Assembly: GCA_965218585.1 (NCBI GenBank)
Contig: CBDCLE010000006.1
Location: forward strand, 1-19,654
From: Terriglobia bacterium
GTDB lineage: Bacteria > Acidobacteriota > Terriglobia > 20CM-2-55-15
DNA length: 19,654 nt
Direction of reading: 5' to 3'
The notes beneath the pieces were generated by a model. That model worked only from the letters and a program-made list of their open reading frames with translations. It was not told where the DNA came from and searched no databases. Below are positions 1,624-16,643 of this stretch, piece after piece (the first letter of the stretch is position 1; each line of letters opens with the position of its first letter). Position numbers and translations under genes: made by a program.

Positions 1624-3107
1624 CAGTCCGTGGTTAAAGTCGGCCTCATCGTAATTAGAAGAAGGACCGGATGCGACCATAACGCGAGGAGAATCAGGTT
1701 AGGAGATCGCGATATGGGAATGGGACGGAGAAAGCACCGACAGGACACGTTGTGGGTTGCGACCGCGGAGTTGCCGCGAACAGCGGGCCACGTATTTTAC
1801 GAACGGGTAAACCGAATCCTGAACGAGACGGAGTTCGACCGGTTCGTCGAGGATGCGTGCGAGAAGTTCTACGCCGCAGTGATGGGTCGGCCGAGCCTGG
1901 CACCGGGCAAGTATTTTCGGATGCTGCTGGTGGGCTACTTTGAAGGGATCGATTCGGAGCGGGGGATTGCATGGCGGTGTGCCGATTCTCTAAGCTTGCG
2001 GGAATTCCTGGGAGTGGGACTGAGCGACGCGGTACCGGATCATTCGACGGTTTCGCGAACCCGACGGCTGATCGATCTGGAGACGCATGGAAAGGTCTTT
2101 TCGTGGATGTTGGGTGTATTGGCCGGTGAGGACCTGATCGATGGGAAGACGGTGGGCGTGGATGCATCGACGCTGGAAGCCAACGCGGCGATGCGATCGA
2201 TCGTGCGGCGGGATACCGGGGAAGCCTGCAACGAGTTCCTGACACGGCTGGCCAAGGCGTCGGGCATTGAGACGCCGACCCGAGCGGACCGGGACCGACT
2301 GGACCGAAAGCGAACCAAGAAAGGATCGAACAAAGAGTGGGAACATCCCCACGACCCGGACGCGCGCATTACGAAGATGAAGGACGGGCGGACGCATCTG
2401 GCGCACAAGGTCGAGCATGCCGCCGACATGAAGACCGGAGCCATCCTGGCGGTTACCGTGCAGGGCGCCGATCGGGGCGACACGACGACTATCGAAGACA
2501 CGATGATCGAGGCGGCCCGTCAGATGGAGACACTGGCGGCCGATCCTGAATCGAAGCTGCCCGACGATTACCTTTCCGAAATCGTGGCCGATAAGGGATA
2601 TCACAGTAACGATACGATGACCGCCTTCAAAGACCTCGGTATTCGCAGCTATATCTCGGAACCGGACCGGGGTCGGCGTAACTGGAAAGGCAAGCCCGCC
2701 GAACAACAGGCCGTCTACGCCAACCGGCGACGGATCCGAGGTGAGCGGGGCAAGCGGTTACTCCGACAGCGGGGACTGATGTTGGAACGGCCGTTCGCGC
2801 ACACTCTGGAAACCGGAGCCATGCGTCGGGTTCACCTCCGACATCGGGACAACATTCTCAAGCGCATCCTGATTCAGTACGCCGCGTTGAATCTGAGCCT
2901 GATTCTTCGGAACAATTTCGGGAACGGCACACCGCGAGGCCTTCAGGGCCAGTATGTTGCTGCCTTGTTCACCCTGATACTGCTCTGGAGCCACTATCAA
3001 TCGCTCTCTTTCGATCCTGAACACTCCGGACACGATTTCAACGCTGTTCCGTCTTGGCCGACACCCGTGAATCCCAATTCAGAAAATTGCACTTCTGCCA
3101 CGGACTG
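1624..3107 (+). mobile_element. IS1182/IS5-like insertion sequence, copy 1 (1484 bp)
   Basis: Terminal IRs CAGTCCGTGGTTAAAGT / CAGTCCGTGGCAGAAGT (14/17). Flanks are CTAA (1620-1623) and CTAG (3108-3111). Ends are confirmed by identity with copy 2. Confidence 0.93.
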
Positions 3108-3111
3108 CTAG
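1714..3111 (+). CDS. DDE transposase (DUF772 + DDE), IS1182/IS5-like
   Basis: AGGAG RBS at 1701-1705. Motifs GRPS, SERGI, PDHSTVSRTR, VGVDAS, VADKGY and LERPFAH. Confidence 0.92.
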   Translation: MGMGRRKHRQDTLWVATAELPRTAGHVFYERVNRILNETEFDRFVEDACEKFYAAVMGRPSLAPGKYFRMLLVGYFEGIDSERGIAWRCADSLSLREFLGVGLSDAVPDHSTVSRTRRLIDLETHGKVFSWMLGVLAGEDLIDGKTVGVDASTLEANAAMRSIVRRDTGEACNEFLTRLAKASGIETPTRADRDRLDRKRTKKGSNKEWEHPHDPDARITKMKDGRTHLAHKVEHAADMKTGAILAVTVQGADRGDTTTIEDTMIEAARQMETLAADPESKLPDDYLSEIVADKGYHSNDTMTAFKDLGIRSYISEPDRGRRNWKGKPAEQQAVYANRRRIRGERGKRLLRQRGLMLERPFAHTLETGAMRRVHLRHRDNILKRILIQYAALNLSLILRNNFGNGTPRGLQGQYVAALFTLILLWSHYQSLSFDPEHSGHDFNAVPSWPTPVNPNSENCTSATDC

Positions 3112-10516: not shown

Positions 10517-11844
10517 CACTAGTGTCCGGAACACGGTGCGACAGCCGCCGGCAACTTATAGATGAACAGTGAGTTGAAGGGCATTCTACGATTTTTCGAT
10601 TTGAACCTGCCGATCACACTTTTAGCAATATTACGGTGAGAGGGGTGATACCAATGGCGCATGAACTCAGGCCAAACCGTCTTCTCACAAGTCATGGATT
10701 ACGCGCCCCGATACGAGTTTCAGAAGTGTGTCGCCCGCTATCGGGGCGATTACCAGCAGAAAGGGTTTTCCTGCTGGGATCAGTTCCTGGCGATGGCATT
10801 CGCCCAATTGACCTATCGTGAAAGCCTCCGCGACATCGAAGCCTGCTTACGCGCCCTCGGCAGAAAGCGTTACCACATGGGATTCCGAAGCAAGGTGGCG
10901 CGGACGACACTGGCCGACGCCAACGAGCGGCGCGACTGGCGGATCTATGCGGATTTCGCACAGGTCCTGATCGGCATGGCGCGGCCGTTATATGCCGAAG
11001 ACCCCATCGGCGTCGAGTTGGATCAAGGTCTGTATGCCCTGGACTCGACCACCATTGACCTGTGTCTTTCACTATTCCCATGGGCCCGGTTTCGCCGGCA
11101 CAAAGCCGCGGTCAAGATGCATACACTGCTGGATCTTCACGGCAACATTCCCCGCGTTTATCCACGTCACAGACGGGAAAGTCCATGACGTCAACGTTCT
11201 CGATGAGATCGCACCCGAAGCGGGTGCCTTCTACGTCATGGACCGCGCCTATATCGATTTTGAACGGCTCTTTCTCTTCTCCCTCTGTTCCGCTTTCTTT
11301 GTGGTGCGTGCTAAGAAGAACGTCGTCCTGCGGCGGCGGTACTCCCGTCGGGTGGACACGACCACGGGATTGCGATCCGACCAGACGGTCATCCTCACAA
11401 CGAACAAATCCGCCAAAACCTATCCCGATCCGTTGCGGCGTATCAGCTACTTCGATGCCGGTACGAACAAGCGGTTGAAGTTCCTGACCAACAACTTCGC
11501 GTTGCCTGCACTCACCATCACTCAGATCTACAAGTCGCGATGGCAGGTGGAACTTTTCTTTAAATGGATCAAACAACACCTTCGAATCAAGTCCTTCTAC
11601 GGCACCAGCGAGAATGCGGTGAAGACCCAGATCTGGATCGCCATTTCGGGTTATGTTCTCGTCGCCATCATCCGGAAGCGCCTCGGCATCGATAGGAGTC
11701 TTTACCAAATCCTACAGATTCTCAGCATTGCGATTCTTGAGAAACAGCCCATTTTGCAGGCCTTTCACGCGCCTGATTCCCAATTCAATGAACTCCAAGA
11801 TCCTAACCAGCTGGTTCTATTCGACTTCTAACCGGACACTAGTG
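10517..11844 (+). mobile_element. IS4-family element (1328 bp) with a 9-bp target duplication
   Basis: 13-bp IRs CACTAGTGTCCGG. Direct repeat AATACAGCT at 10508-10516 and 11845-11853. Confidence 0.96.
10661..11831 (+). CDS. IS4 transposase (DUF4372 + DDE); one apparent frameshift in the C4 run at 11150-11153
   Basis: Motifs LTYRESLRDIE, ALDSTTI, VMDRAY and the YREK motif YKSRWQVELFFK. Confidence 0.94.
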
Positions 11845-12806: not shown

Positions 12807-13362
12807 ATGAAACGACGACAATTCCTCGGTACGGCATTTGTGGGAGCGGGGGTGGCTGCGACTCCCTTACAGAACGCGGAATCTATCCAGAGAAGAAACC
12901 GGATCAAACAGGGCCTCTGGCCCACGAATTTCGGCCCTGACAACGGTTTATCATTCGATGACATGTGTCGGGAAGCCGTGCGCCTCGGCGCACATGGCTT
13001 CGACCTGAGGGGCCGCGACGAATGGGTCACGATGAGGCAGCACGGACTCGAACCGCTGCTGGTGGGAACCGGTGGCGTCGGATTCGGAGATGGAATCATC
13101 CATCCCGAGGCTCATGACGCCCTGTTCGAGTCTGTTTCCGAATGGATCGACACCTGTGCGGATAACGGCATCGAGAACTTCATCACCATCGGTGGCCAGC
13201 GGCAGGGCATGGACTTCCAGGTCGCTCAGGATAACGCCGTAGCGTTCCTCGACCGGATCAAACCCCATCTTGAACGCCGCAACGTTACGATAGCGCTCGA
13301 GAACATGAACAACAGGCGAACCGATCCGGCGTTCGGCGGGGCGGACCAGGTCTGCGGACATT
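12807..13362 (+). pseudogene. Tat-exported hydroxypyruvate isomerase-like / AP-endonuclease-2 TIM barrel, 5' part (interrupted by IS110)
   Basis: Twin-arginine signal MKRRQFLG, then TIALENMN. Joins the 3' part as QVCGH-WEWGIEMC. Confidence 0.88.
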
Positions 13363-13445
13363 CATGATAGGTGTTTGTCAAGCAGAGACAGAGATCTCCC
13401 TTCCGACTGTTTCAGTCAGCTGACACGTTCAGTTGTAACGCGGCG

Positions 13446-13635
13446 ACGGCCCGTGTTCCGTGGGCAGTGGGCGCCAGACATTCATGTGCGAGCATCGGGT
13501 GCGTTTTGCACCGTCGCTGAATTTTGAATTTGGGCCACCGCTGACCTCGAAACATTAGAGAGGGCGGACGCATCCAGAGGACGTGCCGCAGTCCGACAAC
13601 TGCGAGGACCAGCGGTGTCGCTGCGCAGCGGCCGT
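13446..13635 (-). ncRNA. Predicted bridge RNA / seekRNA of the IS110 element (boundaries approximate)
   Basis: Guide segments match the target (13586-13591, 13552-13559) and the donor junction (13523-13529, 13478-13486). Each pair flanks an internal hairpin. The target loop is closed by CACCGCTG/CAGCGGTG and CCTCG/CGAGG stems. Confidence 0.8.
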
Positions 13636-13638
13636 GTT

Positions 13639-14667
13639 TCAGGCCACCTTTCGGTTCTGGATGACGAATGGCTGACCACTCCGGTCCACCGATACCAGAT
13701 ACGCCACCAGACGACGGGCGACCGCCATACTGGCACGGTTTCTGGAGCCGCGCAGTCGTTCCCGGTCCCGAATCTCCATCAGCCGCTGGTCCCACCGGGG
13801 TGCCGCCTTGGCCGCCTCAACGAGGACGACCTGTAGATGACGATTGCGTTTCTTCGAGATCGGACCCCGGTGCTGCAGGCCCGCTGAACTGTGCTCGGCA
13901 CTGCAAAGACCGCAGTAACTAACTGCGTGACCGATTGAAGGAAACCGTTCGATCTCACCCACCTCCAGAGCCCAGGTTAGCGATAGGATCTCGCCGACAC
14001 CGGGAATGGTCTGCAGCAGTTCCACCCGGTCTCTGAGCAGAGGATCTTTTAGCAGTCCTTGTCTCAGCTCTCGTTCCACGGACCGAAACATTTCCACCGA
14101 TGCCCGGCTCAGCTTCAGCAGGTGCAGAACCGATTCGGGAACTTCCTCCAGGTTCGCTAGCAGTTCGGAGAAGTACCGCTCTCCGTGCAACCGTTGCTTG
14201 TTGTATTCAGTACCGGTTTCCATTAGTAGTCCCGCAATCCGGTTCTTCATCCGCACCGCTTCGGTCACAACCAGATTCCGGTACCGCAACATCCGTCTCA
14301 GCTCCCGGATCTCACTCGGGGCGATATAGCATTCCGGCAGTAGATCGCATCGCAGCAGATCAGCGATCTTCCTCGCATCGACTCGGTCGTTCTTTTTTTT
14401 GGATGCCGCGATGGCCTTCAGCATCGGTGGATGTGCGACTTTCAACTCCCTCGCCCAGGGTTTGAGCGTGTCATAGACCCATCCGGTGAACATGGTCGCT
14501 TCCATGGCTCCCACCCACGGCTCCCGACGTTCGACAGCCCAGTCCTCAAGCTTCCGACGGGTTGCGGCGATCACTCCTTCCTCCGTAATCTTTCCGTCAT
14601 TCTCTTTCACACAGTAGCTAATCGTTTTCTTGTGGATATCGAATCCGATATAGTGATTCACGTTCAT
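13639..14667 (-). CDS. IS110 DEDD recombinase/transposase (342 aa)
   Basis: RuvC-like DEDD residues in IGFDIHK, MEAT and KNDRVDA. C-terminal LQTIPGVG, YCGL and the catalytic-Ser motif HSSAG. RBS GGGAGG. Confidence 0.95.
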   Translation of the reverse strand: MNVNHYIGFDIHKKTISYCVKENDGKITEEGVIAATRRKLEDWAVERREPWVGAMEATMFTGWVYDTLKPWARELKVAHPPMLKAIAASKKKNDRVDARKIADLLRCDLLPECYIAPSEIRELRRMLRYRNLVVTEAVRMKNRIAGLLMETGTEYNKQRLHGERYFSELLANLEEVPESVLHLLKLSRASVEMFRSVERELRQGLLKDPLLRDRVELLQTIPGVGEILSLTWALEVGEIERFPSIGHAVSYCGLCSAEHSSAGLQHRGPISKKRNRHLQVVLVEAAKAAPRWDQRLMEIRDRERLRGSRNRASMAVARRLVAYLVSVDRSGQPFVIQNRKVA

Positions 14668-14782
14668 TGACCCTCCCGGTGTGTTTTCTGAGCGGGTGTC
14701 CATTCACCCGTCTCGGCTCTTTTAAACACGTCGGGAGGGTTTCTGTCATCTGAACTGCCCGGCACCTATGCATTCAAACATT

Positions 14783-15103
14783 GGGAATGGGGCATCGAGA
14801 TGTGTCAGCGTGTCGATTCACCCAACGTGGGGATGGTGTGTGACATCTACCACCTCCAGATCATGGACGGCGATCTCGCTTTCAACATCCAGAGCAGTAT
14901 CGACTGGATCGCTCACTTCCATACCGCCGGCGTCCCGACGCGGAACGAGCTCGACTATACCCAGGAGGATCAACTATCGATACATCGCCGAGGTGATTGC
15001 CGACACCGGGTATACCGGATATGTGTCGCACGAATTCCGACCCGGGCCGGGCCGCGACCCGGTTCGTTCGATCGAACAGGCAATGGCGATCATGGATGTC
15101 TAG
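14783..15103 (+). pseudogene. Hyi-like TIM barrel, 3' part; one apparent frameshift near 14967
   Basis: DIYHLQIMDGD, AHFHTAGVPTRNELD, QEINY and YTGYVSHEF. Confidence 0.88.
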
Positions 15104-15155
15104 CTGAAGGCCTACCCGGCGCTCGGTCCTGTCAATTGGCCGCCAGATGCGCTAG

Positions 15156-16643
15156 CAGTCCGTGGTTAAAGTCGGCCTCATCGTAATTAGAAGAAGGACC
15201 GGATGCGACCATAACGCGAGGAGAATCAGGTTAGGAGATCGCGATAATGGGAATGGGACGGAGAAAGCACCGACAGGACACGTTGTGGGTTGCGACCGCG
15301 GAGTTGCCGCGAACAGCGGGCCACGTATTTTACGAACGGGTAAACCCGAATCCTGAACGAGACGGAGTTCGACCGGTTCGTCGAGGATGCGTGCGAGAAG
15401 TTCTACGCCGCAGTGATGGGTCGGCCGAGCCTGGCACCGGGCAAGTATTTTCGGATGCTGCTGGTGGGCTACTTTGAAGGGATCGATTCGGAGCGGGGGA
15501 TTGCATGGCGGTGTGCCGATTCTCTAAGCTTGCGGGAATTCCTGGGAGTGGGACTGAGCGACGCGGTACCGGATCATTCGACGGTTTCGCGAACCCGACG
15601 GCTGATCGATCTGGAGACGCATGGAAAGGTCTTTTCGTGGATGTTGGGTGTATTGGCCGGTGAGGACCTGATCGATGGGAAGACGGTGGGCGTGGATGCA
15701 TCGACGCTGGAAGCCAACGCGGCGATGCGATCGATCGTGCGGCGGGATACCGGGGAAGCCTGCAACGAGTTCCTGACACGGCTGGCCAAGGCGTCGGGCA
15801 TTGAGACGCCGACCCGAGCGGACCGGGACCGACTGGACCGAAAGCGAACCAAGAAAGGATCGAACAAAGAGTGGGAACATCCCCACGACCCGGACGCGCG
15901 CATTACGAAGATGAAGGACGGGCGGACGCATCTGGCGCACAAGGTCGAGCATGCCGCCGACATGAAGACCGGAGCCATCCTGGCGGTTACCGTGCAGGGC
16001 GCCGATCGGGGCGACACGACGACTATCGAAGACACGATGATCGAGGCGGCCCGTCAGATGGAGACACTGGCGGCCGATCCTGAATCGAAGCTGCCCGACG
16101 ATTACCTTTCCGAAATCGTGGCCGATAAGGGATATCACAGTAACGATACGATGACCGCCTTCAAAGACCTCGGTATTCGCAGCTATATCTCGGAACCGGA
16201 CCGGGGTCGGCGTAACTGGAAAGGCAAGCCCGCCGAACAACAGGCCGTCTACGCCAACCGGCGACGGATCCGAGGTGAGCGGGGCAAGCGGTTACTCCGA
16301 CAGCGGGGACTGATGTTGGAACGGCCGTTCGCGCACACTCTGGAAACCGGAGCCATGCGTCGGGTTCACCTCCGACATCGGGACAACATTCTCAAGCGCA
16401 TCCTGATTCAGTACGCCGCGTTGAATCTGAGCCTGATTCTTCGGAACAATTTCGGGAACGGCCACACCGCGAGGCCTTCAGGGCCAGTATGTTGCTACCT
16501 TGTTCACCCTGATACTGCTCTGGAGCCACTATCAATCGCTCTCTTTCGATCCCTGAACACTCCGGACACGATTTCAACGCTGTTCCGTCTTGGCCGACAC
16601 CCGTGAATCCCAATTCAGGAAATTGCACTTCTGCCACGGACTG
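15156..16643 (+). mobile_element. IS1182/IS5-like insertion sequence, copy 2 (1488 bp), CTAG duplication
   Basis: Same IRs as copy 1. CTAG at 15152-15155 and 16644-16647. By eye it differs from copy 1 by four 1-nt insertions and two substitutions. Confidence 0.94.

Follow-up and report, generated by a model that had tools for sequence, protein, structure and literature searches.

Bridge RNAs encoded in the right end have already been predicted for 93% of IS1111 elements (PMC11208160), and Durrant et al. described both loops, the target-binding and the donor-binding one, for elements of this group (PMC11208160). The predominant seekRNAs reported by Siddiquee et al. 2024 (PMC11187229) are 82 to 96 nt long and contain the two target matches, and the IS1111 order puts the top-strand-complementary guide first, with the bottom-strand guide 3' of it (PMC11187229).

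The window analyzed here (19,654 nt of a Terriglobia bacterium contig) contains an IS110-family element that interrupts a plus-strand gene for a xylose-isomerase-like TIM-barrel protein. We interpret it as an IS1111-type member of the family, with a putative bridge (seek) RNA that would carry both target and donor guides (probability about 0.88). In its RNA, too, the guide that complements the top strand comes first, as in the IS1111 order. In this respect the element is like ISEc11, ISPa11, ISKpn4, and ISPst6 (PMC11187229), with which it also shares a DEDD recombinase of 330 to 350 aa followed by a long non-coding region, subterminal inverted repeats, and two target matches that overlap at the crossover. 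It differs from them in its Ser motif, SA in place of SG or TG. Since right-end bridge RNAs of IS1111 elements had already been described (PMC11208160, PMC11187229), the element adds a member to a known class of systems. No nucleotide similarity to any named element was detected in the sources searched, and its protein relatives carry generic names.

The likeness to IS621 (Durrant et al. 2024, PMC11208160; Hiraizumi et al. 2024, PMC11208158) lies in the two internal loops, in each of which a left guide is directed to the bottom strand and a right guide to the top strand, in a dinucleotide core included in all guides, and in a predicted promoter rebuilt across the circle junction. Unlike that of IS621, the RNA is located in the right (3') end and not in the left one, the guides of the target loop come in the opposite order, GT takes the place of CT as the core, and the target guides are longer, with matches of up to 10 to 11 nt per side in relatives. 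Inspected by eye, the two bases that follow each right guide on its 3' side had no obvious fit to the opposite DNA of the kind made by the handshake guides of IS621. Similarity between the two recombinases is weak and restricted to the C-terminal domain (E 5e-11). The best match among solved structures is the recombinase of ISCro4 (PDB 9t56; E 6.4e-12), which aligns over both domains, although the two are only distantly related and that element is organized as in a different group. Both ISCro4 and IS621 (PDB 8wt6) align with the recombinase at the D, E, D..D and Ser positions, so that the catalytic DEDD and Ser residues are held in common.

The insertion and its recombinase

The element (Table 1) is 1420 bp long, counting one copy of the core, and its ends, TTGAATG.. 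and ..CATGAAT, form no inverted repeats. The junctions are those given by an earlier note on this DNA, CTGCGG-ACATT-CATG at 13352-13366 and ATTCAA-ACATT-GGG at 14772-14785. An uninterrupted paralogue of the disrupted gene region (G000:C2:468636-470323) is colinear with both flanks (92.6% identical across 1367 nt and 97.9% across 331 nt), and because it carries a single ACATT the insertion is precise. Thus, as in the IS110 family, there are neither terminal inverted repeats nor a target duplication beyond the shared core. The target site of the paralogue is identical to that of the window at 19 of 20 scored positions, yet it is empty.

The layout is that of IS1111, with a 5' end of only 79 nt (115 nt if translation starts at M13) and a non-coding end of 276 nt downstream of the recombinase gene. 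The subterminal repeats ATAGGTG/CACCTAT (7 bp, within the 7 to 17 bp of the IS1111 group) are found 8 nt from the left end and, at the right end, 7 nt from the core. In relatives they measure 6 to 9 bp and are located at the same offsets, with other sequences but with their complementarity kept.

The recombinase matches PF01548 (E 1.2e-18) and PF02371 (E 2.5e-19), as well as the NCBIfam profile NF033542, "IS110 family RNA-guided transposase", with 190.3 bits (cut-off 140) and coverage of profile positions 1-343 of 343. It has the N-terminal DEDD RuvC-like domain (D22, E68, D106, D109) and the C-terminal Tnp domain with the conserved Ser, within HSSAG at 271-275, that characterize the IS110 family. 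The true start is probably M13 at 14667, which would give a protein of 342 aa, since the relatives and a 96% identical homologue of 342 aa begin at residue 13.

The earlier note took the repeated ACATT as the core, which was too long a call, as only (T)GT is common to both junctions across the relatives. Their common ends are TTGAATGYATAAGG.. on the left and ..CTTGACA..CTTATCATGGA on the right; left flanks end in (C)TGT, and the right junction reads NGT-CC... The base preceding GT is lineage-specific at the right junction and always T at the left one, as the left guide requires, and for this reason we read the core as the dinucleotide GT. The five bases shared in the window arise because the left flank and the right end both happen to finish in AAT. 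At the right end, the base before GT can be T, C, A, or G depending on the lineage (e.g., L059, L069, L022, and L123), and as the left-donor guide keeps a U, many lineages would have a natural mismatch next to the core.

The window also contains two copies of another insertion sequence (1620-2965 and 15152-16500; 99.6% alike over 1349 nt) with a DUF772 plus DDE_Tnp_1 transposase (ORFs 1630-3111 and 15413-16606). The second copy begins approximately 370 nt past the IS110 element, at the point where the homology with the C2 paralogue ends, so that this region of the gene was apparently struck by two insertions. With one more transposase ORF (DDE_Tnp_1), the third, at 10992-11831, the window is rich in insertion sequences.

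Table 1. Parts of the IS110-family element and its target, by position in the window
Feature	Positions	Strand	Basis or remark
Whole insertion sequence	13358-14782	-	Junctions read; span includes the repeated ACATT at both junctions
Recombinase ORF	13639-14703	-	354 aa as listed; PF01548 + PF02371
Putative bridge (seek) RNA core, target-binding loop then donor-binding loop	13470-13621	-	Covariance model R1
Target-binding module (P1 13617-13610/13543-13536; P2 13607-13603/13549-13545)	13536-13617	-	Family model, covariation
Right-target guide (predicted), GUUGUCGGAC	13591-13600	-	Homologous position in 64 guide/flank combinations; model alignment; X3 flank
Inner stem-loop of target loop (P3, GCGG 13589-13586/CCGC 13567-13564)	13564-13589	-	Model; P3 pairs AU/GC/CG covary
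Left-target guide (predicted), CUCUCUAAUGU	13552-13562	-	Directly 5' of invariant UUCGAGG, as in all relatives
Right-donor guide candidate, AUUCAAA	13523-13529	-	Complementary to T+TTGAAT at the left end; less certain than the other three
Inner stem-loop of donor-binding loop	13488-13517	-	Model; helices 4 and 5 covary
Left-donor guide (predicted), CAUGAAUGU	13478-13486	-	Identical to right end + core
TTGACA in right end	13376-13381	-	Candidate junction promoter
Right subterminal inverted repeat, CACCTAT	13367-13373	-	Partner ATAGGTG 14769-14763
Left target flank + core, ATTCCCAATGT in element orientation	14778-14788	-	Same 11 nt flank the X3 copy

A predicted bridge RNA in the 3' end

The non-coding ends gave almost nothing when compared with those of the relatives by blastn, and motif anchors and a covariance model were needed for this reason. 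As the earlier note had suggested, the model (R1) was built from homologous elements, on an alignment (A2) of 34 non-redundant relatives with the window left out. It recovered a single match in the window, over the full model length, with 67.3 bits (E 3.6e-19), the next-best score being 11.1 bits, and in a search of 71 sources it found 68 RNAs. A common scaffold is plain among relatives whose nucleotide similarity is too low for BLAST. RNAalifold, applied to the 34 relatives, predicted two closing stems (P1 and P2), an internal loop with GGAC at the end of its 5' strand and UGU at the end of its 3' strand, an inner stem-loop formed by P3 and P4, and a second module with its own inner stem-loop.

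The secondary structure is conserved and covaries. Among 67 distinct RNAs, 96.5% of the cells were paired, versus 82.5% in shuffles and 25 to 51% with slid partners, and 18 of the 25 base pairs had changed on both sides; none of 500 shuffles reached the observed values, though this alignment was fitted to the model, which favors such statistics somewhat. An independent MAFFT alignment had compensatory changes in 13 of 31 pairs. The stems of 8 and 5 bp drawn in the earlier note exist, and they correspond to P1 and P2 of the family; P1 of the window differs from the family sequence CCGGCCG/CGGCCGG by compensatory changes. Its GGA-UGCG-UCC hairpin, in contrast, competes with P3 and P4 of the model and finds no support in the family alignment. 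A search of Rfam (E<=10, positions 13200-14900) returned only a chance match of 12.5 bits and no family for the bridge RNA, and single-sequence folding of the 276-nt end was uninformative, its stability being not unusual (z -1.47).

The four segments from which the RNA had originally been recognized are all present on the minus strand (CUGCGG at 13591-13586, UCUAAUGU at 13559-13552, AUUCAAA at 13529-13523, and CAUGAAUGU at 13486-13478). In 20,000 mononucleotide shuffles of the 276-nt end, equivalent matches arose by chance in 9.5% of cases for the first segment, 8.8% for the second (G:U pairs allowed), 0.7% for the third, and 0.05% for the fourth, and the four together never occurred.

Some relatives (L004, L007, L011, L015, L022, and L024) have 3' non-coding ends of 519 to 534 nt, in which an extra stretch of approximately 240 nt with long GC-rich inverted repeats lies between the stop codon and the bridge RNA. 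L018 and L016 have no such stretch.

Predicted guides, flanks, and the proposed circle junction

In the relatives, a 5'-strand segment that finishes in GAC reads as the reverse complement of the core GT and the right flank together (guide/flank examples are GGTAGGAC/GTCCTACC, TAAGTGGGAC/GTCCCACTTA, TCCCGTGAC/GTCACGGGA, and AUCGCGGAC/GTCCGCGAT), while the left flank is copied by a segment that finishes in UGU and directly precedes the invariant UUCGAGG (e.g., UUUUAAUUGU, CGCCAUCUGU, and CCGUCUGU). Anchored right matches of 4 to 11 nt are found 37 to 44 nt (mostly 42 to 43) before the end of the left guide wherever they are clear; that of the window is at 39. Over eight variable positions, the right guide had on average 4.59 Watson-Crick matches with its cognate flank (64 combinations) versus 2.51 with non-cognate ones, and the left guide 5.32 (53 combinations) versus 3.92, the non-cognate means being inflated because many elements share targets. 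Target guides therefore covary with the flanking DNA on both sides of the core, among the relatives and in the same element elsewhere.

In the window, the AC of the predicted right-target guide would pair with the core GT, and the guide as a whole would pair with GTCCG at the window site and with GTCCGACAAT beside a second copy (X3, see below). Beyond GTCCG, the fit to the window flank is poor, with 3 of 8 variable positions in Watson-Crick pairs, a value between the cognate and non-cognate means. The predicted left-target guide is in the sense orientation of TTCCCAATGT, the left flank that three independent insertions have in common, and would pair with its bottom strand with two G:U pairs. 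The second segment of the earlier note falls within this guide (13562-13552), and its assignment is upheld by the homologous position and by guide-flank covariation in relatives.

Among loci of one MAG that carry the same left guide, UGGUCUGU, we observed two kinds of hairpin-like site, one in L011, L014, and L035 and the other in L012 and L017. The sites are GATGGCCTGT, read with a G:U pair, and GATCGTCTGT, read with one mismatch.

The third and fourth segments were retained as donor guides (13529-13523 and 13486-13478) on the basis of their alignment with the family and their match to the element ends, the third being the least certain. No segment complements the left end better than AUUCAAA, which aligns with AYUCAAU of the family; against the left end, this guide has one compensated change (L084) and one uncompensated change (L063), the ends being otherwise invariant. 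A second register just upstream is a possible alternative. The first tandem segment (CYCAAAC) was also considered for this role and rejected, as its variants fail to track the left end in two of the three known cases. For the left-donor guide, relatives with the right end CATGGA carry AUGGAUGU, while the window, L039, and L044, with CATGAA, carry AUGAAUGU, so that an A/G change in the guide is matched in the right end. Covariation in the donor loop is thin because the ends of the element are nearly invariant.

A consensus scan of the integrated copy for sigma-70 promoters and terminators found none. On a circle, 18 nt would separate TTGACA of the right end from the left-end TTGAAT (14777-14772). 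Of 52 distinct end pairs, 51 have TTGACA, 46 of them at a spacing of 18 nt and 5 at 17 nt. By analogy with the promoter rebuilt in IS621 (PMC11208160), we propose TTGACA/TTGAAT as a candidate junction promoter. In the RNA-library runs X1 and X2, contigs covered only the ORF of a relative at 90 to 95% identity and none reached the non-coding end, which says nothing either way about transcription of the element.

Other insertion sites and alternative readings

The genome has one full copy of the element plus a fragment of 654 bp. The fragment (L002, G000:C1:34538-35191) is 96% identical and consists of the first 654 nt of the element only, followed by unrelated DNA; its left flank ends in CTCAGTGT, a poor fit to the left guide of the window. 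No match to the insertion sequence was found in 59 of 60 related genomes, the remaining one having only matches of 47 nt, and the element was not found in any of the 4 same-genus and 34 same-family genomes searched. In public genome and metagenome collections, 129 loci encode relatives with 47 to 75% best-segment identity. Over most of the protein length, the best relatives reach 69% in the genome collections and 67% in the metagenome collections; one relative at 69% (L031) is truncated and has no 3' end. Closer protein homologues are found at 96, 89, and 82% identity. The nearest protein matches in named collections are a generic "IS110 family transposase", and a search for a named relative among named plasmid records gave generic names only (best identity 62%).

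Contigs of public runs were compared with window positions 13100-15050, and copies 95 to 99% alike were found in at least three contexts. A contig of 2134 nt from run X3 carries the element in another genomic context with 11 differences in 1422 nt (ca. 99% identity). Nine of the 11 differences could be located, none of them in a guide, so the X3 guides are likely, rather than certain, to be identical to those of the window. The left flank of this copy has ATTCCCAATGT in common with the window, and its right flank starts with GTCCGACAAT, which pairs with GUUGUCGGAC through nine Watson-Crick pairs and one G:U pair. A third left flank, from run X5, ends in TTCCCAATGT. From the X3 and X5 flanks, the preferred target would be approximately TTCCCAATGT-CCGACAAT. 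At the window site the left match is complete, but on the right only GTCCG is shared. Scored with both guides across 10,321 TGTCC sites of the genome, the empty site of the window reached 17 of 22; 166 sites (1.6%) scored at least as high, the maximum was 19, and none was perfect. The copy in the window seems to be an insertion at a secondary, partly matching site, and not at the best target of the element as had been supposed. The X3 site pairs with the guide over 10 nt.

The X3 alignment ends 9 nt short of the end of the element (near window 13363-13367), and loose letters there repeat the end sequence, which points to one inserted nucleotide beside the right subterminal repeat or to an artefact of the assembly.

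These sites bear directly on the proposal of the earlier note that the right-target guide is CUGCGG (13591-13586), pairing with CCGCAG, with CTGCGG-ACATT-GGG of the window as a cognate site. This hexamer complements the flank perfectly over its 6 nt and adjoins the homologous guide position, but relatives keep a scaffold ACUGCAC or ACUGGGC at this position whatever their flank, and in the model alignment only its C belongs to the guide, as the last base of GUUGUCGGAC, followed by an unpaired U and by GCGG (13589-13586), the 5' strand of the conserved stem P3, paired with CCGC (13567-13564). Moreover, CUGCGG is unable to pair together with the core GT, it is of the kind found in nearly one of every ten shuffles (9.5%), the nearly identical site of the C2 paralogue is unoccupied, and the right flank of the ca. 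99% identical X3 copy, a further insertion of the kind that the note had proposed to test for CTGCGG-ACATT-RGR, fits GUUGUCGGAC and not CUGCGG. We therefore disfavor this assignment as highly improbable. Another explanation would limit the function to the target-binding half, with a short seekRNA as in ISEc11 and ISKpn4 and with a protein that reads the ends through the subterminal repeats, the donor "guides" being conserved for some other reason (for example, as end sequence copied within the element). Reported seekRNAs of 82 to 96 nt with the two target matches (PMC11187229) are in line with it, as are the covariation of the subterminal repeats between ends and a donor-guide covariation limited to one A/G change (in three lineages) and one C/U change. 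We consider it improbable nonetheless, since conservation along the RNA is highest in the donor loop region, the inner stem of this loop covaries in helices 4 and 5, a copy of 8 to 9 nt of the right end plus core is found in the donor loop of all relatives, and both loops were described for IS1111-group elements (PMC11208160).

A third explanation accepts the RNA and the ORF as they appear and takes the copy as a dead relic, no longer mobile in this host. One full and one truncated copy in the genome, the absence from all same-genus (4) and same-family (34) genomes searched, and the vacant paralogous site (19 of 20 scored positions) speak for it. On the other hand, the ORF has its catalytic residues and a full-length match to NF033542, all the stems of the RNA are kept, and copies 95 to 99% alike occur in at least three contexts in public runs, so we regard this as unlikely, though less so than the two previous readings.

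The interpretation that we prefer is the one set out at the beginning, an IS1111-type element with an RNA that guides both target and donor; the earlier note had assigned the element to this class, and the model match, the structural and guide-flank covariation, and the further insertion sites agree with it. The gene of a DEDD/Ser recombinase of 342 to 354 aa is followed by a predicted structured bridge RNA of ca. 150 nt, 13621-13470(-), with two target guides in the first internal loop and two donor guides in the second, where AUUCAAA would pair with the left end and CAUGAAUGU with the right end plus GT. By analogy with IS621 and ISEc11, the element may be excised as a circle joined at GT, the junction of which would unite TTGACA and TTGAAT as a promoter, and the complex of RNA and recombinase may then insert the circle at sites such as TTCCCAATGT-CCGACAAT. 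The description of the system as intact holds for the ORF and the RNA, while "potentially reprogrammable" would extend to this element only by way of IS621 and ISEc11.

The element is a new member of a large clade, with generic names only in the sources searched, and relatives may be included in the supplementary tables of PMC11208160 and PMC11187229, where predicted bridge RNAs are given for each ISfinder element. The clade comprises at least 4455 proteins at E<=1e-30, in Acidobacteriota, Desulfobacterota-like, and other MAGs. More tentatively, and with some doubt on our part, this could be a large uncharacterized environmental clade of IS1111-like elements with a GT core, long target guides (ca. 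10 nt per side), and left-dominant recognition in nature. If so, insertion would require no more than a complete left match and 5 nt of right match, and for programmable recombination the clade would provide a separate scaffold whose rules of specificity differ from those of IS621. For one and the same element, the cognate, the secondary, and the empty identical sites hint at the extent of right-flank mismatch that is tolerated. As a natural case of an IS1111-type bridge RNA, the locus allows every part to be placed by homology, and, while knowledge of the system class itself is unchanged, the family alignment and the model could find more such RNAs.
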